The notes beneath the pieces are model-generated. The model did no database searches, had not been told where the DNA came from, and worked only from the letters and a program-made list of their open reading frames with translations. This document shows, piece after piece, positions 28,584 through 35,048 of a DNA stretch of 64,000 nucleotides; positions within the stretch are counted from its first letter, which is position 1; every line of letters starts with the position of its first letter. Source of the DNA: Litoreibacter ponti (GTDB lineage: Bacteria; Pseudomonadota; Alphaproteobacteria; Rhodobacterales; Rhodobacteraceae); contig NZ_QBKS01000002.1 in NCBI RefSeq assembly GCF_003054285.1, positions 223,207 through 287,206 on the forward strand, given 5' to 3'. The translations under genes were made by a program, and so were the position numbers.

Positions 28584-30005
28584 ATGCCTATGGACACGAC
28601 CCGCAAGACCCTCGTCGGCCCCTCCCTGAGACAGCTGCGCCGCGACAATCGCGAAACGCAGGCCCAGATGGCCAAGCGGCTGGGGATAAGTGCGGCCTAT
28701 GTGAACCTGTTGGAAAACAACCAGCGCGCCCTGTCGGTGCAAGTCCTTATGGCCATTACGGAAACCTATGGCGTGGATTGGCGCGACCTGATCGCCGACA
28801 ATGACGCGGCCCGGCTGGCCGATCTGCGCGCGGCGCTGCGCGACCCGGTTTTTGGCCCCGAGATCCCCGACCTGCAGGAGCTGCGCGCCGCGCTTGATCA
28901 CGCGCCCCGGCTGGTGGAGAAGTTCCTGTCCCTGCATCGCTCGCACCGCATGACGATGGACCGGGTGATGGCGCTTGGCAGCGATGAAGGCGCATCCGGG
29001 CTGATCGCGACCTCGCCCGAGACCGCGATCCACGACTACTTCCGCAACCACGGGAATCACTTCGACACGCTGGAACGCCGCGCCGAGGCGATCCGGGGGG
29101 AGATCGGCGGCGGACCCGATGATCTTTACGCCGGGCTGAAAGCGCGGCTGGGCGCGCGGCACGGGGTCGTCGTGCAGATCGGGCGCATCCATGACATAGG
29201 CGCGCGGCTGCGCGACTACGATCAGGCGGCGGGCAAGGTCATCCTGTCGGAAGCGCTCGATCACCCCAACCGGGTCTTTCAACTCTGCCACGTGCTGGCG
29301 CTGCTCGAGGTCTCGGGCGAGATCGACCTGCTGCTCGAAGACGCAGCCATCGCCGACGAGGCGGGCGCGGCGCGCTGCCGGGTGGAGCTGGCCAACTACG
29401 CCGCCGCGGCGATCCTGATGCCTTATATGGAGGTGCTGGAGCTGGCCGAAAGCACGCGCTACGACCTCGACCGGATCGCCGCGGGCTTCGGCGTGAGCTT
29501 CGAGCAGGTCTGCCACCGGCTGACCACCTTGCAGCGCGATGGCGCGCGCGGTGTGCCGTTCTTCTTCCTGCGCACCGACAAGGCGGGCAATGTCACCAAG
29601 CGGTTCAACTCGACCTCCTTCACCCTCGCCGAGCAGGGCGGCGCCTGCCCGGTCTGGAACATCCACGGGGCCTTCCGGACACCCGGGGTGATCCTGCCGC
29701 AATTCGTCGAGTTGCCCGAGGGCGGGCAGTTCTTCACCCTCTCGCGCACCTCCGACCGCCCGGTCTTTTCGCGCGCCACGCAGGACCGGCGGCTGGTGGT
29801 CACGCTGGGCTGCGAACGCACCCACGCAGAACGGATCGGCTATGCGGCGCCCTTCAACATAAGCGAGCGCGACCTGTTCGACCCCATCGGGATCAACTGC
29901 CATCTGTGCCCGCGCCAGGCCTGCTCCCAGCGCGCCCACCGCCCGCTTCATGTCAATCTTCCGCTCGATGCCAACCGGCGCGGATCGACCCGCTACGAGA
30001 GCTGA
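28584..30005 (+). CDS. short-chain fatty acyl-CoA regulator (ScfR / RamB / PccR-type; XRE HTH + C-terminal effector domain)
   Basis: N-terminal XRE HTH (LRQLRRDNRETQAQMAKRLGISAAYVNLLENNQR) followed by a roughly 400-aa domain, as in RamB/PccR regulators. 473 aa. Confidence 0.7.
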   Translation: MPMDTTRKTLVGPSLRQLRRDNRETQAQMAKRLGISAAYVNLLENNQRALSVQVLMAITETYGVDWRDLIADNDAARLADLRAALRDPVFGPEIPDLQELRAALDHAPRLVEKFLSLHRSHRMTMDRVMALGSDEGASGLIATSPETAIHDYFRNHGNHFDTLERRAEAIRGEIGGGPDDLYAGLKARLGARHGVVVQIGRIHDIGARLRDYDQAAGKVILSEALDHPNRVFQLCHVLALLEVSGEIDLLLEDAAIADEAGAARCRVELANYAAAAILMPYMEVLELAESTRYDLDRIAAGFGVSFEQVCHRLTTLQRDGARGVPFFFLRTDKAGNVTKRFNSTSFTLAEQGGACPVWNIHGAFRTPGVILPQFVELPEGGQFFTLSRTSDRPVFSRATQDRRLVVTLGCERTHAERIGYAAPFNISERDLFDPIGINCHLCPRQACSQRAHRPLHVNLPLDANRRGSTRYES

Positions 30006-30646: not shown

Positions 30647-31324
30647 CTACACCTCGATCGGCGTGATCAGCTCCGGCCCCGCGGCCCGGTTCGAATTTAC
30701 CGCTGTGCCGACGCGGTGAAACGCCAGCCGGTCCTCAGGGGCGTGGGTCATCAGCTTCGCCGCCCCCTTACCCGCCTCCCCCAGCCAGAGCGGCCAGTCT
30801 TGCGGCGCGAGCGTCACGGGCTCACGGTGATGGATCGCCTGCATCTTGGGCGAGGCCTCCGTCGTGACAATGGCGCAGGTCACATGCTCGACCTCCGCGC
30901 CTTTCTCCTGCCCCTTCCAATGCTGATAGATGCCCGCGAAGGCGAGCGTGCCGCCGTCATCGGGGTGGATGTACCACGGCAAGCGGTTGCCATCCGCATC
31001 CTTGGTCCATTCGTAAAAGCCCGTCGCCGGGATCAGGCAGCGCTGGTGGCGCACGGCGGCGCGGAAAGCGGGCTTCTCGGCCACCGTCTCGCCCCGCGCG
31101 TTGATCAGGAGCGGGCCGTCACCGGGCGTCTTGTACCAATACGGGATGAAGCCCCAGCGCAGCGACACGATCCGCCGATGCCCCTGCTCCGAGGTCACGG
31201 CGCAGACCTGATTGGTCGGGCAGATGTTGTAATTGGGCAGGTTCGGCAGATCATTGCCCGGCGCCGCATCAAACAGCGCCGCCATCGCTTCCGCCGGGGT
31301 GGTCATGGAAAATCGTCCGCACAT
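30647..31324 (-). CDS. SOS-response-associated peptidase (SRAP / YedK-like abasic-site processing protein)
   Basis: Trimmed to MCGRFS start (catalytic Cys2) at 31324. 225 aa with the characteristic WKxAxxxRRCLIPA-like core. Confidence 0.8.
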   Translation of the reverse strand: MCGRFSMTTPAEAMAALFDAAPGNDLPNLPNYNICPTNQVCAVTSEQGHRRIVSLRWGFIPYWYKTPGDGPLLINARGETVAEKPAFRAAVRHQRCLIPATGFYEWTKDADGNRLPWYIHPDDGGTLAFAGIYQHWKGQEKGAEVEHVTCAIVTTEASPKMQAIHHREPVTLAPQDWPLWLGEAGKGAAKLMTHAPEDRLAFHRVGTAVNSNRAAGPELITPIEV

Positions 31325-31435: not shown

Positions 31436-32566
31436 TCAGTCGCGGAGCCGGACGATGTCGTTCATCAGCCCATCCGTCCCGCTGTGCACGGTCAGGCGCT
31501 CCACTTTGCCCGCGATGGCTTCCAGAGCTTCCAGCTCTTTCAGCCGCAGCATCACGGGGTTCTCGGCCATCACCTTGGCGGTGTTCAGAAGCGAACGGGT
31601 TGCGTTCGTTTCTTCCCGACGCCGGATGACGTTGGCCTCGGCCGCTTTCTCGGCAGCGACAACACCCGTCAGGATGTCACGCATCTCGCCGGGCAGGATC
31701 ACGTCTTTCAACGTGATGGCCCCCACCTCGACCCCGAGCTCGGCCATCTCGGCGCGGACCGCATCTGCGGCCTCGGCATCGACGGCCAGTTTGTCGGCGA
31801 GCAACGCATCCAGGGTCAGCGCCCCCAGCGTTTTGCGGAAGGCGAGGCCCAGGGCACGGTGCAGCGCGTCCTCGAAGTCGCGGACGGCGGTGACCGCCCG
31901 GACGGGGTCGACCACCCGGAAGTCAGCGGCAAGGTTCACCCGCAGCGACACCCGGTCCCGGGTCAGGATTTCGTGGCCGGTCACGTCATGGGCCCGCCAG
32001 CGCAGATCCACCCGCTTGACCACGATGGTCCGGCCAGCGGTCCAGAACCGGTGCACGCCCGCCTCCAGCACCTCGGCCAAGGCCCCGTCGACGAACATCA
32101 GCGCGACATCCGCCTCAGCCACCTCGACCACGGTCATGGCGTGGGTCATGCGTGCCCGGGTCAGCCGATCGCCCAAGGCCCGGTCCACGGCGAACCCGTC
32201 AGACAGGTCCACCCGCGTCACGGCCCAGGGCCCCGCATCGGTCCAGAGCAGGCGCCGGGTCTCGGGCGCGAGCACCTCGAAGAGCCGCCCGTCCCGCTCG
32301 ATCACCGCGATCTCGCCCGCATCGGTCCGCATCTCGGTGAGATGCGCCCACGCCAGCTCCGCGTGCCCCCGCATCAAAGCCTCCGCCAGAGGAGAGGTGA
32401 AGACGGGGTCGCCCAGATCGTGCCGCTCCAGCACGTCGCGCGCCCAGATGCGGTGCTCGCCCGCGCCCAGGATCGCATGGATCCGACCTTTGCGCAGCAC
32501 GATGGCCCGCTCGGTCTCGGACACGGTCACTTTCCGCATCCCGGTCAAAATATTCAGCAACCACAT
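31436..32566 (-). CDS. SPFH / band-7 domain protein
   Basis: Trimmed to MWLLNILTGMRKV at 32566 (AAAGGAGA ribosome-binding site 7 nt upstream). SPFH core followed by long Ala/Glu-rich helical region. Confidence 0.8.
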   Translation of the reverse strand: MWLLNILTGMRKVTVSETERAIVLRKGRIHAILGAGEHRIWARDVLERHDLGDPVFTSPLAEALMRGHAELAWAHLTEMRTDAGEIAVIERDGRLFEVLAPETRRLLWTDAGPWAVTRVDLSDGFAVDRALGDRLTRARMTHAMTVVEVAEADVALMFVDGALAEVLEAGVHRFWTAGRTIVVKRVDLRWRAHDVTGHEILTRDRVSLRVNLAADFRVVDPVRAVTAVRDFEDALHRALGLAFRKTLGALTLDALLADKLAVDAEAADAVRAEMAELGVEVGAITLKDVILPGEMRDILTGVVAAEKAAEANVIRRREETNATRSLLNTAKVMAENPVMLRLKELEALEAIAGKVERLTVHSGTDGLMNDIVRLRD

Positions 32567-32965: not shown

Positions 32966-33036
32966 TTGTGATGGCAGGAGTCGAACCTGCTCCTTTGGAT
33001 TAATCGTCCAATGCTTTACCGATCAGCTACATCAAA
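32966..33036 (-). tRNA. tRNA-like element, possibly degenerate (atypical anticodon loop CGATTAA, weak D-stem, no encoded CCA)
   Basis: Minus strand has a 6/7-bp acceptor stem (TTTGATG / CATCACA), a perfect T-arm GCAGG-TTCGACT-CCTGC and anticodon stem TTGGA / TCCAA. However position 33 is G and the D-stem has only 3 bp. Confidence 0.35.
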
Positions 33037-33327: not shown

Positions 33328-33819
33328 TCACACCAGCCGGTCGCCCATCAGGTCCTCGACGAACAGGCTGAGCAGCTGCGCCCGCCCGCTAACCCCGGCC
33401 TTGCGGTAAATGGCGTTGGTCTGCGCCTTCACGGTGCCCTCGCTGGTCTCGCGCAGGGTGGCGATTTCCTGCAGCGACAGCCCCTTGATCGAAAACAGCG
33501 CCACATCACGTTCGGCGGGGGTCAGGGCCCATTCCTCGAACCGCTCATTGAGCAGCTCGGCAAAGGCGCCTGAGGCCAGCCGCAGCTGGCCTTCGACGTG
33601 ATCTGCACGGGCGCGGATGGCGCGCAGGGCGACTGCCCCCATGACCACGCCCAGGATCAGCCCGACCGAGGCGCCGATCTCGATCAGCTCGCGCAGCTGC
33701 CAGTTGATCGGGTTGACGGACAGCCCCAGGACGGAAATTGCGATCTCCGAGACGAAGAAGATCGCACAAAACAACTGCAGCGCCAGAATGGCAAAGAACG
33801 CCGCCCGCGATTTCAGCAT
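33328..33819 (-). CDS. membrane-anchored LuxR-family (HTH LuxR-type) transcriptional regulator
   Basis: 163 aa with two N-terminal TM helices (AAFFAILALQLFCAIFFV and IGASVGLILGVVMGAVAL) and a C-terminal LuxR HTH (LTPAERDVALFSIKGLSLQEIATL...TVKAQTNAIYRKAG). Start lies 6 nt after the upstream stop. Confidence 0.7.
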   Translation of the reverse strand: MLKSRAAFFAILALQLFCAIFFVSEIAISVLGLSVNPINWQLRELIEIGASVGLILGVVMGAVALRAIRARADHVEGQLRLASGAFAELLNERFEEWALTPAERDVALFSIKGLSLQEIATLRETSEGTVKAQTNAIYRKAGVSGRAQLLSLFVEDLMGDRLV

Positions 33820-33825
33820 GGGGGC

Positions 33826-34302
33826 TTAGTCGTCATCGTCGTCATCCCCGCCGCCGCCGCTGCCGCTGTTACCACTCCCGCTATTTCCGCTGCCGCTGTT
33901 GTCGTCATCATCATCGTCGTCGTCGTCGTCATCATCATCGTCGTCGTCATCGTCGTCATCGTCGTCATCATCGTCGGAGCTTCCACGCCCGGAGTTGCCG
34001 CTCGATCCACCAAGAAGCTCGGGGCCGGACGCCCCATTGCCGAGCCGCTGCGTGAAATCGCGCAAGATGACGCCGGTCGATGGGTTAACGACGATTTCAC
34101 GGCTGAGATCACCGCGCTGCGCCGTGATCCGCACGCGGCCCAGCAGCGTGCGCGCGCTAGAGGTCACCTTGAAGCCCTGACGGGCGAGCTGGCGCTCCAC
34201 CGAGGCTTCAACGCTCTGTGCTACCGCCAGCCCTGGCAAAGCTGTGGCCAGCGCGAGACTGGCCAGTCCAAGTGCGACGCGGCGTCGGGTTACTCGTGTC
34301 AT
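33826..34302 (-). CDS. secreted PepSY-domain protein with poly-aspartate tail (D26, then (NSGSG)x3, GGGG, D6)
   Basis: Start MTRVTRRRVALGLASLALATALPGLAVAQS (signal peptide, RRR n-region) with GAGGA ribosome-binding site. A PepSY-like core of about 60 aa is followed by an uninterrupted run of 26 Asp. Confidence 0.7.
   Translation of the reverse strand: MTRVTRRRVALGLASLALATALPGLAVAQSVEASVERQLARQGFKVTSSARTLLGRVRITAQRGDLSREIVVNPSTGVILRDFTQRLGNGASGPELLGGSSGNSGRGSSDDDDDDDDDDDDDDDDDDDDDDDDDNSGSGNSGSGNSGSGGGGDDDDDD
33901..33978. repeat. (GAC/GAT)n triplet simple-sequence repeat, 78 bp, encoding poly-Asp
   Basis: gtcgtcatcatcatcgtcgtcgtc... read directly. Confidence 0.9.
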
Positions 34303-34317
34303 CGGGTCCTCACGTGA

Positions 34318-34344
34318 CCTCTTGCCCGGCACGCGGGCAAGAGG
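34318..34344 (-). promoter_or_regulatory. perfect 11-bp-stem hairpin between the two PepSY / poly-Asp genes (intercistronic attenuator or processing site)
   Basis: cctcttgcccg gcacg cgggcaagagg with no U-tract. Confidence 0.4.
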
Positions 34345-34362
34345 TGTTGGTGTGTACAGCGA

Positions 34363-34851
34363 TCAGTCGTCATCCTCGTCGTCGTCGTCGTCGTCATCAT
34401 CGTCATCGTCATCGTCGCTGTCATCATCGTCATCATCATCGTCGTCGTCATCGTCGTCGCTGTCGTTGTCATCATCGTCGCGATCGTCATTGTCATCATC
34501 GTCATCGTCACGATCGTCACGATCGTCGTCATCATCGTCGTCGTCCTCATCATCGTCGAGGAAATTCTCGTTGCGCGCCTGGATCTCGACGCCCGCGCGC
34601 CCGATCTCGTCGGCCTCGGCCCGTTCCTGTTCCTGCTTCAGGATCTGCCCGGTGGCATTGTCGTAGATCAGTTCCAGCTTTTGCGCGCCGTTGATGGCCT
34701 CGACCTTGGTTTGGCTCGGGCCGTTCTTGATCTCGATGAATCCAAAGCCGCGCGATTGCAGGGTCTCGACGATCTGCTCGTTCATCGTCGCCGCCATCGC
34801 AGCGCCAGTGAGGGAGGTGGATGCCAGCAGGGCAAGGGTGATGCGTTTCAT
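34363..34851 (-). CDS. secreted PepSY-domain protein with roughly 70-residue poly-aspartate tail
   Basis: Signal peptide MKRITLALLASTSLTGAAMAA, AAAGGAGA ribosome-binding site. A PepSY-like core (IVETLQSRGFGFIEIKNG...KLELIYDNATGQILK) is followed by a tail that is almost entirely D with sparse R/N/S/E. Confidence 0.75.
   Translation of the reverse strand: MKRITLALLASTSLTGAAMAATMNEQIVETLQSRGFGFIEIKNGPSQTKVEAINGAQKLELIYDNATGQILKQEQERAEADEIGRAGVEIQARNENFLDDDEDDDDDDDDRDDRDDDDDDNDDRDDDDNDSDDDDDDDDDDDDDSDDDDDDDDDDDDDEDDD
34366..34558. repeat. (GAC/GAT)n-rich triplet repeat tract of about 190 bp encoding the poly-Asp tail
   Basis: gtcgtcgtcgtcatcatcgtcatcgtc... read directly. Confidence 0.9.
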
Positions 34852-35015
34852 GATCAGGTCTCCTTTCGATCCGCTCGAACCGCAGGGTGCGGTCGATGCG
34901 GTGAAGGATCGGGGGCCCGCGCGCCGATGCCCATGAGCTAAAGGTTTAGGCGCGCTCGCGTAAACCGGGGCAAGATAGGAATAAACCCCAGTTTATGGGG
35001 GTGTCAGGGTCCAGA

Positions 35016-35048
35016 CGAAAAAAGAGCGCCGATCCGGCGCTCTTTTGA
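35016..35048 (-). terminator. rho-independent terminator downstream of trpB (bidirectional shape)
   Basis: aaaaaagagcgccg atc cggcgctctttt. Confidence 0.6.

Follow-up and report, generated by a model that had tools for sequence, protein, structure and literature searches.

The window, by which we mean the whole 64-kb stretch of Litoreibacter ponti DNA that was analysed, contains three adjacent minus-strand genes, A, B and a regulator gene. The first two share the orientation of the third and directly precede it, and the stop codon of B is separated from the regulator start by a 6 nt spacer. Unless called unstranded, the features located below are on the minus strand. The anatomy proposed in the initial annotation, two exported PepSY-like small proteins with polyacidic tails in tight coupling with a LuxR-type regulator carrying two transmembrane segments, was borne out by the analysis.

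Gene A (34363-34851) encodes 162 amino acids, and a ribosome-binding site AAGGAG can be read from the sequence at 34860..34865, 8 nt ahead of its ATG. The protein starts with a signal-like segment (residues 1-21, 34789-34851) ending in AMA/AT, continues with an acidic PepSY_2-like domain of about 77 amino acids that has one extra strand (residues 22-98, 34558-34788), and ends with a 64-residue poly-Asp tail (residues 99-162, 34366-34557) composed of 54 D, 2 E, 3 R, 2 N and 2 S, with a net charge of -54. The match of the window's A protein to Pfam PepSY_2 (PF13670) was below the cut-off (15.1 bits, E 0.023, cut-off 24.3), and 26 of 31 A-family members matched the same profile, the best with an E value of 1.9e-7. 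The A domain was net negative in 100% of the sequences. The acidic tail is kept in the A slot even at loci where no PepSY-type domain is recognised and Pfam gives no domain (e.g. L001, L004, L040 and L078). In Aestuariibius insulae (L013) two EF-hand loops scoring above the Pfam cut-off replace the PepSY domain and are followed by a poly-Asp tail like that of other A proteins. These EF-hand matches emerged after removal of the tail; L013 was the only locus scanned tail-free, nine other A-slot proteins were scanned at full length, and the full-length scan of A-slot proteins gave no EF-hand match. For the Ca2+ or mineral sensing suggested in the initial annotation, which stays a candidate role, the EF-hand pair is one independent hint, coming from a single locus.

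Gene B (33826-34302) encodes 158 amino acids from its ATG; an upstream GTG start would give 168. Its signal-like segment (residues 1-28, 34219-34302) contains TRRR and ends in AVA/QS. It is followed by an Arg-rich PepSY-like domain of about 59 amino acids (residues 29-87, 34042-34218), a Gly/Ser linker, a run of consecutive Asp residues (33901-33975), (NSGSG)n repeats and a C-terminal D6 (33829-33846). The pure Asp run noted in the initial annotation is present, with a length of 25 rather than 26 residues. Searched alone against Pfam, the window's B protein had no match. Among 76 B relatives 33 matched PepSY (PF03413) and 27 PepSY_2, all weakly (best E 1.4e-3). B domains have on average 8.4 Arg per 59 residues and are net positive in 75% of the sequences. 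A twin-arginine-like RRxFL motif was found by pattern matching in 48 of 82 B relatives, and in two of eight B relatives tested TIGR01409 scored 16.2-16.3 bits, against a cut-off of 16.7.

The AlphaFold2 models of the two proteins, built from shallow alignments, have the same order of secondary structure elements, H-E-E-E-E. Block-mean pLDDT was 83-91 in A, with a low-confidence tail, and above 90 over residues 31-80 of B, and both are predicted to consist of a helix and a four-stranded sheet, an arrangement that may correspond to the PepSY fold of one helix packed against four antiparallel strands. Pairwise BLASTP between the A and B domains detected no similarity, and alignment of the A profile with the B profile by hhalign gave a probability of 98.6% (E 5.5e-16). 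The paralogy claimed for A and B thus holds at the profile level and fails at the pairwise level, and the claim of PepSY identity fares similarly: it is carried by the A family, whereas the window's own A is sub-threshold and its B matches nothing in Pfam. Both PepSY membership and A/B paralogy appear to hold only at the level of families and profiles. Judged from their N-terminal hydrophobic signal-like segments with AxA sites, A and B are probably both extracytoplasmic.

Tail sequence is not conserved; what is conserved is a low-complexity and usually acidic composition. In B tails, Asp and Glu together make up a median fraction of 0.45, and 52 of 82 tails terminate in DD; the median net charge of the tails is -26, and 76% of the database relatives have a net charge no higher than -10. 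There are also B tails rich in Gly/Ser and poor in acids (L037, L042 and L069), with a D+E fraction down to 0.07 and in one case a charge of +7, which argues that a polyanion is not strictly required. Some others (L065) resemble DSS repeats.

Such tails raise the question whether the two ORFs are genes at all or GAC/GAT simple-sequence DNA or an assembly artefact. TRF reports period-3 repeats at the locus, a short-read assembly of L. ponti is interrupted within the Asp run of B, and the exact A and B sequences of the window are absent from a collection of 15 billion proteins. Against this stand the mixed use of GAC and GAT codons in the poly-Asp tracts, the 1,665 representative clusters of B relatives in the database and the preservation of reading frame, signal peptide, folded domain and acidic tail across dozens of genera although the DNA of the tails differs. 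The artefact explanation, to which we assign a practically negligible probability, is rejected by this conservation and the existence of the genes stands, in agreement with the initial annotation; only for the precise length of the tails does the quality of the assembly still matter.

When the two domains were used as queries in word-indexed protein searches, A gave only 2 matches and B 8, and the window's own proteins were missed. Because A and B proteins are under-represented in this database, conservation was assessed in genome loci of relatives, in which ORFs were called anew. Some predicted relatives resemble frameshifted A-B fusions. Of the 86 loci examined, nearly all labelled Rhodobacterales and together spanning many genera, all 86 had gene B directly upstream of this LuxR-type gene; gene A was usually present, and the three genes usually followed trpF-trpB. 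A recurrence of this extent is far beyond chance and supports the view that the triad is a single conserved module. Profile matches exist for the families named in the initial annotation, and the triad is intact in relatives, with no sign of pseudogenisation.

The regulator gene (33328..33819) encodes 163 amino acids, and its product matches the L. ponti LuxR family protein WP_107846599.1 with 100% identity. Kyte-Doolittle analysis with a 19-residue window identified two hydrophobic segments, TM1 at approximately residues 6-33 (33721-33804, hydropathy peak 2.41) and TM2 at approximately residues 45-68 (33616-33687, peak 2.17), joined by SVNPINWQLRE, a loop of roughly 11 residues that is predicted to lie outside. 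A linker helix connects TM2 to the HTH (residues 99-151, 33367-33525), which matches Pfam GerE (PF00196) with 26.6 bits, above the cut-off of 23.5; the LuxR assignment with a C-terminal HTH and two membrane segments was thereby confirmed. PF00196 is recorded for nearly all among the 120 homologues listed. The best curated-family match of linker plus HTH was NCBIfam NF047608, the Leptospira 'LIC13292 family transcriptional regulator' (E 3.7e-16, 59.7 bits), whose profile length of 166 is near the size of the regulator. Membership in NF047608 was rejected, since its cut-off of 200 bits is far above this score and just the C-terminal 75 residues align. Architecturally, the protein fits the transmembrane transcription regulators, defined as single polypeptides that carry, along with a DNA-binding domain, one or more predicted transmembrane segments (PMC10269533); the words 'LuxR' and 'GerE' each occur 0 times in that paper, which does not discuss the regulator's family.

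Searches of Pfam and NCBIfam revealed no receiver, ligand-binding or autoinducer-binding domain in the regulator, whose N-terminal 70 residues are made up of the two hydrophobic segments; response-regulator models align only to its HTH part, and there are no Response_reg or HisKA genes among the neighbours in the three loci inspected for them (L001, L003 and L004). Assignment to the NarL/FixJ-type response regulators was rejected on these grounds. This domain content also bears on the idea that the protein is an orphan AHL quorum-sensing receptor with two unrelated small genes beside it. Membership in the LuxR/GerE HTH family and the large number of LuxR genes mentioned for Roseobacters in PMC3824088 speak for such a receptor, but the N-terminal half of the protein consists of two membrane segments, with no autoinducer-binding domain, and linkage with B is universal. 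We regard an AHL receptor as extremely improbable and, by domain content, as effectively refuted. Lacking a receiver, a ligand-binding domain and a sizeable periplasmic domain, the regulator would be unable to sense the periplasm alone. Its membrane region is nevertheless as conserved as the HTH, with invariant Q15, F21, F22, G32, P37, W40 and E44, and this conservation around so short a loop argues that the hairpin itself may be a functional interface.

The remark in the initial annotation that the locus lies where trpA would be expected after trpB holds as conserved synteny only. None of the eight window ORFs of 272-296 amino acids that were tested matched the trpA (tryptophan synthase alpha) family, and a terminator parts trpB from the triad, which has its own promoter region. 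This terminator, a GC-rich hairpin read from the sequence (AAAAGAGCGCCGGATCGGCGCTCTTTTTT, 35019..35048), is overlaid by a sub-threshold Rfam match to an sRNA terminator. Between it and gene A lies an unstranded operator-like 20-bp palindrome, CCATAAAC-TGGG-GTTTATTC (34979..34998), with the family consensus cgCATAAAC-N4-GTTTATgc. A k-mer motif search was first swamped by GAC/GAT codons, and the palindrome emerged when the search was limited to the trpB-A intergenic region. It is exclusive to the triad promoter in the DNA examined: TAAAC-N4-GTTTA has its sole match in the 64-kb window at this site, and the 61 copies present across 641 kb of related loci are all upstream of gene A (59 were placed between trpB and gene B by a script criterion and two upstream of A from their coordinates). 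By consensus and information content the half-sites TAAAC/GTTTA are invariant, as is the recognition helix of the regulator (TVKAQTNAIYRK) among its relatives; the match of invariant helix to invariant half-sites was counted for autoregulation.

A second conserved element, the unstranded GGTTTA-N12-TAAACC (34943..34966), begins 33 bp after the palindrome and is conserved with fixed spacing across about 55 loci; it may be either a second operator or core promoter elements. It is followed by a conserved cAATGG-like box, which reads TCATGG in the window (34931-34936). A promoter consensus scan detected no credible sigma-70 site upstream of A. Between A and B there is a GC-rich stem-loop (34317..34345) with a 12-bp stem and no T-run after it (dG -24.5 kcal/mol, z -2.84). 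In 56 loci a hairpin occupies this position, with a median of -25.4 vs -16.9 for shuffles and z < -2 in 86%, and is followed by a T-rich stretch in only 8 of the 56. This hairpin would fit a separate, stronger expression of A.

We found nothing specific in the literature on the triad, on poly-Asp PepSY proteins or on membrane LuxR regulators in Roseobacters. The pairing of PepSY proteins with envelope regulators is an established theme (PMC12714742). In the DbfQ-DbfRS system of Vibrio cholerae and the BqsPQ-BqsRS system of Pseudomonas aeruginosa, as described there, one or two small single-domain PepSY proteins with signal peptides are likewise encoded immediately upstream of a membrane regulator, with which they are apparently co-transcribed. 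DbfQ, whose gene precedes that of the sensor, was shown experimentally to bind and control DbfS, so that there an accessory protein controls a sensor from the periplasm, and the use of a PdbfQRS reporter is consistent with autoregulation; for BqsS, such control by PA2658 is predicted, with PA2659 next to it as the other gene of the PepSY tandem (BqsP/Q). As in DbfQRS, a small periplasmic PepSY protein lies within a few genes of the regulator, for B in 86 of 86 loci. The differences lie in the partner and in the tails. DbfQRS and BqsRS use a histidine kinase with a periplasmic sensor domain together with a response regulator, whereas the triad has a one-component membrane LuxR protein and its flanks lack kinase and receiver domains in the three loci mentioned above. 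A and B carry polyacidic tails of 60-70 residues, and the available text of PMC12714742 mentions none for DbfQ. What is new in the triad is thus the poly-Asp tails and the one-component membrane LuxR partner; PepSY accessories beside an envelope regulator were already known.

Further comparisons concern the components. UipA of Microbacterium, which binds uranyl and Fe3+, and the lanpepsy protein LanP of Methylobacillus, which binds lanthanides, are PepSY proteins that bind hard cations via carboxylates. Each has two PepSY domains with acidic residues on their folded surfaces, whereas in the triad the charge resides in a predicted disordered C-terminal tail and the B domain is basic. ToxR-ToxS, VtrA-VtrC (PMC9214523) and the transmembrane regulators (PMC10269533) combine an inner-membrane DNA-binding protein with a co-encoded periplasmic partner, the co-component arrangement proposed here for the triad. 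ToxR and VtrA each combine an OmpR-type winged helix at the N-terminus with one transmembrane segment and a folded periplasmic domain, and their partners are lipocalin-like; the triad has a C-terminal LuxR/GerE HTH, two transmembrane segments, no periplasmic domain and PepSY-like partners. A ToxR/ToxS-type assignment was rejected on HTH type, number of membrane segments, loop and partner fold. Extended low-complexity tracts made almost wholly of Asp, or of Asp and Ser, are otherwise familiar from eukaryotic proteins that are exported or luminal and bind Ca2+ or minerals, such as the C-terminal tail of calsequestrin, aspein/asprich and the DSS repeats of phosphophoryn. The likeness is one of composition, not homology, and the bacterial periplasm and the coupling to a transcription factor are absent from the eukaryotic systems.

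Taken together, the triad is probably a module for envelope sensing, and we consider that there is about an even chance that it is an autoregulated co-component envelope-signalling operon of Rhodobacterales with a one-component membrane LuxR regulator. In the envisaged mechanism, the regulator would be held in the inner membrane by its two-helix hairpin, and B, on the periplasmic side, would act as its partner by docking on the hairpin's conserved outer face (D/E25, P37, W40, E44 and E47) and setting regulator activity. A would be an exported acidic protein, more abundant and more variable, which modulates B or the signal. The disordered polyanionic tails would serve as the sensing or titrating element, binding multivalent cations, most likely Ca2+ or Mg2+, with other hard metal ions or polycations as possible ligands, and cation binding would change the engagement of the regulator by the PepSY domains. 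The active regulator dimer would bind CATAAAC-N4-GTTTATG in its own promoter and probably other genomic targets as well. Contact between B and the regulator, binding of the operator and the identity of the signal are what we infer; for the last, multivalent cations such as Ca2+ are possibly the answer and the most likely candidate.

The systematic charge pattern, with an Arg-rich B domain, an acidic A domain and polyanionic tails, was counted in favour of the co-component mechanism, as were the universal linkage of B to the regulator, the conserved membrane region, the PepSY character of A and B and the DbfQ and BqsRS precedents. Several points count against it. The very small outside loop offers little surface for docking of a PepSY domain, and the palindrome could be bound by another transcription factor. 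Across 51 pairs, the top mutual information between B and the membrane region of the regulator was 0.256, no better than the 0.239 for B and the TrpF control or the 0.327 for B and the cytoplasmic part. The acid-poor B tails, the hairpin between A and B and the restriction of the EF-hand replacement to one locus were also counted on this side. Seawater contains about 10 mM Ca2+ and 50 mM Mg2+; poly-Asp would be largely saturated there, making simple Ca/Mg sensing less obvious. The carboxylate chemistry of UipA and lanpepsy and the EF-hand pair of A. insulae were counted for the cation link. A more specific version, which we consider unlikely to be correct as it stands, makes the triad a new type of periplasmic ion sensor in which the Arg-rich face of B's PepSY domain is contested by two poly-Asp tails, that of A and that of B itself. 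Ca2+, Mg2+ or another multivalent cation would neutralise the tails and free B, which would then dock on the acidic outer face (D/E25, E44 and E47) of the membrane-tethered LuxR dimer and thereby switch transcription from the dedicated palindromic operator.

Two other explanations have to be weighed. A and B could themselves be the output, serving in the periplasm as polyanions for the buffering or storage of cations, for metal detoxification or as a source of fixed negative charge in a Donnan or osmotic role, with the membrane LuxR protein just a local regulator sensing something else, e.g. the state of the membrane via its hairpin. The retention of the acidic tail in A slots with no recognised PepSY-type domain, the existence of simple metal-binding PepSY proteins (UipA, lanpepsy) and the restriction of the operator to the triad promoter within the DNA examined are all compatible with such a role, and the conserved hairpin after A, suggesting higher or independent expression of A, suits an effector function of A as well. 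On the other hand, the universal retention of B with its domain and its tight coupling to the regulator form the pattern of a stoichiometric partner rather than cargo, the regulator itself lacks a sensing domain, and two small proteins would be an inefficient buffer for millimolar cations; on balance we find an effector role possible, if somewhat unlikely. A still less probable explanation, rather improbable in our judgement, is that the PepSY proteins report perturbation of the outer membrane or LPS with no cation involved, as in DbfQ-DbfRS, and that the tails are disordered spacers, solubility tags or bristles repelling LPS or peptidoglycan, with no specific ligand. DbfQRS responds to LPS mutations and membrane-damaging antimicrobials according to PMC12714742, and the lack of tail sequence conservation, with compositions from pure Asp to Gly/Ser-rich, would agree with spacers. 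The strong and widespread Asp bias evident from the D+E fraction, the DD ends and the net charges given above speaks against this explanation, as does the EF-hand pair in the A slot of one species.

If the co-component mechanism holds, the newly recognised control of envelope sensors by small periplasmic PepSY proteins would no longer be confined to two-component systems but would include membrane transcription factors of the one-component kind, and extreme poly-aspartate tracts would acquire a concrete role in bacteria. Through its conserved operator, the regulon is open to direct testing. Should the tails compete for B as in the more specific version, the Roseobacter/Rhodobacter lineage would possess, in its core genome, a sensor of cations or the ionic environment whose components are a one-component membrane transcription factor, a PepSY domain and a disordered polyanion. 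Few bacterial lineages of the sea are as abundant or as well studied as this group, and every relative sampled carries the module, whose function has so far gone undescribed.

Three consecutive minus-strand genes occupy positions 33328-34851, and their anatomy had been described correctly in the initial annotation, with all ORFs as given there. Gene A (34363-34851) is a 162 aa ORF whose N-terminus, read from the sequence as MKRITLALLASTSLTGAAMA-AT with cleavage before AT, is followed by a domain of about 77 residues and a 64-residue C-terminal tail containing 54 Asp (net charge -54). Gene B (33826-34302; 158 aa counted from ATG) begins with MTRVTRRRVALGLASLALATALPGLAVA-QS, the cleavage site being read before QS, and continues with a domain some 59 residues long, a Gly/Ser linker, a run of 25 Asp (previously counted as 26), an (NSGSG)n stretch and a terminal DDDDDD. 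Six nucleotides separate the B stop codon from the start of the regulator gene (33328-33819), a 163 aa ORF with 100% identity to the 'regulatory LuxR family protein' of Litoreibacter ponti. Hydrophobic segments at approximately residues 6-33 and 45-68 of the regulator are connected by the short loop SVNPINWQLRE, and residues 99-151 match Pfam GerE (26.6 bits, threshold 23.5). Long ORFs at 33598-34317 (+), 34244-34666 (+), 33813-34112 (-) and 34299-34553 (-) were rejected as codon-repeat by-products; alternative-frame or opposite-strand ORFs across the GAC/GAT tracts would encode poly-Ser, poly-Val/Ile or poly-Thr/Met.

The triad is genuine and not an artefact. Three relatives inspected via LuxR orthologues (Litoreibacter roseus, Actibacterium lipolyticum and a Roseobacter strain) have the same gene order (HU-family DNA-binding gene, lapA, trpF, trpB, two small genes, LuxR), and in each of them the two small genes code for proteins with a signal peptide and a poly-Asp tail. 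Scanning a single genome per species yielded 80 further loci, nearly all labeled Rhodobacterales/Paracoccaceae. The arrangement recurred in this neighbourhood comparison, which the initial annotation had proposed: by ORF and motif analysis (RTLLGRxRI...REIxxNPxTG.ILRD), the B domain lies immediately 5' of the regulator in 86/86 loci, three motif variants accepted by eye included. A gene in the A slot, between trpB and B, was present in most loci whose upstream DNA suffices. When 1.84 billion proteins were searched with a profile of the B domain, 1,665 representative clusters were returned, the relatives being usually 120-180 aa long. Tails of at least 20 residues were found in 141 of the best 146 matches, and 76% of these tailed proteins had a net charge of -10 or below.

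PF13670 was matched by 26 of the 31 A-family members (best E 1.9e-7), so that the A family is, judged by profile matching, a divergent PepSY_2 family. Matches of B members to PepSY or PepSY_2 were weak. The PepSY assignment made initially holds at the level of the family profiles; the window's own A and B proteins each remained below the Pfam thresholds, and the regulator passed that for GerE. The proposed paralogy of A and B was upheld at the profile level: the two profiles matched with 98.6% probability (E 5.5e-16), which makes them distant paralogues. AF2 models of both proteins consist of one helix on a four-stranded sheet, with block means above 90 for B (residues 31-80), 83-91 for A and low confidence in the tails. 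The B domain is rich in Arg (mean 8.4 per 59 residues, R31 and R43 invariant) and carries a net positive charge in 75% of the sequences; the A domain is net negative in all. A twin-arginine-like RRxFL signal pattern occurs in 48/82 B proteins, with TIGR01409 scores near threshold, and the A signal is of the Sec type.

The A slot is evolutionarily plastic. In several genera no PepSY-type domain was recognised in the A-slot protein. A Silicimonas sp. protein (L054:2580-3374) carries two tandem PepSY_2-like domains in one chain, and other variants (L018 and L079 among the loci listed) have tails of DDDRW, DDDR or DRDRDD repeats, not pure Asp. In Aestuariibius insulae (L013:2787-3272) PepSY is replaced: a signal peptide and a poly-Asp tail accompany two canonical EF-hand loops, DSNGDGELSFAE and DDDNDGRVSLAE (EF-hand_1, 31.6 bits after tail removal, cut-off 25.4).

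Tail sequence is unconserved, the forms including pure poly-D, DDDR, DDH, DDY, (GD)n, (GGDD)n, (SD)n and Gly/Ser-rich; the usual constant is a low-complexity acidic composition, often ending in DD (52/82 B tails). B tails have a median length of 70 residues, a median D+E fraction of 0.45 and a median net charge of -26, and a few are Gly/Ser-rich with scarce acidic residues. Whether tail length varies had been asked in the initial annotation, and it does: two Celeribacter halophilus strains (loci L056 and L074) have tails of unequal length, which indicates that these tracts change quickly. The repeats also pose technical problems. The short-read (Logan) L. ponti assembly stops within the B poly-Asp run, and the exact A and B proteins of the window were not found in a 15-billion-protein collection, whereas the adjacent regulator was. 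Some database relatives of B (P0181, P0240) resemble A-B fusions reading through the repeat in the wrong frame. Poly-Asp genes such as those at 33826-34851 and in locus L086 appear to be under-represented or mis-called in databases.

Upstream of gene A, a hairpin with a T-run ending trpB (35019-35048, read from the sequence) is followed downstream by a 20-bp palindrome, CCATAAAC-TGGG-GTTTATTC (34979-34998), and by GGTTTA-N12-TAAACC (34943-34966), which begins 33 bp after the palindrome. The palindrome core, TAAAC-N4-GTTTA, is found at a single place in the 64-kb window; the 641 kb of related loci contain 61 copies, all of them upstream of gene A. Since dimer sites of LuxR-family regulators classically take the form of a 20-bp palindrome, we infer that the triad is probably autoregulated by its own regulator through this element. 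A GC-rich stem-loop lies between A and B (34317-34345; -24.5 kcal/mol, z -2.84). Hairpins at the matching position in 56 loci had a median best energy of -25.4 versus -16.9 for shuffles, with z < -2 in 86% of the loci and a T-run after the hairpin in few, which suggests that the expression level of A may differ from that of B and the regulator.

A tRNA gene (32966-33036, minus strand; Rfam tRNA, 54.4 bits) lies downstream of the regulator at a distance of about 290 bp and was called tRNA-Asn with anticodon ATT by ARAGORN. Its anticodon loop reads CGATTAA, with G in place of the nearly universal U33, and there is one mismatch in its acceptor stem; this could be a degenerate or tRNA-like element. 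In related genomes its place is taken by a convergent DUF2237 gene. Further downstream in L. ponti are genes for a Band_7/SPFH protein (31436-32560, minus), also near the triad in a few relatives (L008, L009, L068, L082), an SRAP-domain protein (30647-31306, minus) and an HTH_3/Peptidase_M78 (ImmA/IrrE-like) regulator (28584-30005, plus). No functional link between these neighbours and the triad was evident.

Matching to Pfam and other families found neither an autoinducer-binding nor a receiver domain in the regulator, ruling it out as a quorum-sensing LuxR and as a response regulator, respectively. By its predicted architecture it qualifies as a transmembrane transcription regulator. Conservation across 25 orthologues (63-77% identity) is as high in the membrane hairpin as in the HTH; the invariant residues include Q15, F21, F22, G32, P37, W40 and E44, acidic residues occur at positions 25, 44 and 47, and the recognition helix TVKAQTNAIYRK is invariant.

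The nearest precedent is the PepSY/two-component module. According to PMC12714742, DbfQ, a periplasmic PepSY protein of 12 kDa whose gene precedes dbfRS, binds the DbfS sensor domain; bqsRS of P. aeruginosa is preceded by two tandem PepSY genes, and PepSY/two-component neighbourhoods are enriched more than 60-fold over chance. The triad shares this logic but has neither kinase nor receiver. It also shares the logic of ToxR-ToxS and VtrA-VtrC, membrane transcription factors with periplasmic co-components (PMC9214523), but its regulator has no winged helix and no periplasmic domain. A further shared logic is that of UipA and lanpepsy, PepSY proteins that bind hard cations via carboxylates, but in the triad it is a disordered tail that carries the acidic charge. 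The triad fails the defining features of all three families, and a literature search found no description of it.

We give about even chances to the triad being an autoregulated co-component sensor, in which B, aided or tuned by A, would act from the periplasm to control the membrane LuxR, with the poly-Asp tails as the element responsive to multivalent cations. The weakest link of this model is the cation part, which, taken by itself, is doubtful; it rests on tail composition, the PepSY metal-binding precedents and the single EF-hand replacement. The main rival explanation, which we consider unlikely, treats A and B as effectors, namely polyanions of the periplasm that are merely controlled by the regulator. 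A coevolution test between B and the membrane region of the regulator (51 pairs) gave no signal above the TrpF control.

The triad is a conserved, apparently undescribed signalling operon. It is compositionally extreme, universal among the sampled members of an ecologically important lineage and under-represented in protein databases, and its putative operator now makes it directly testable.
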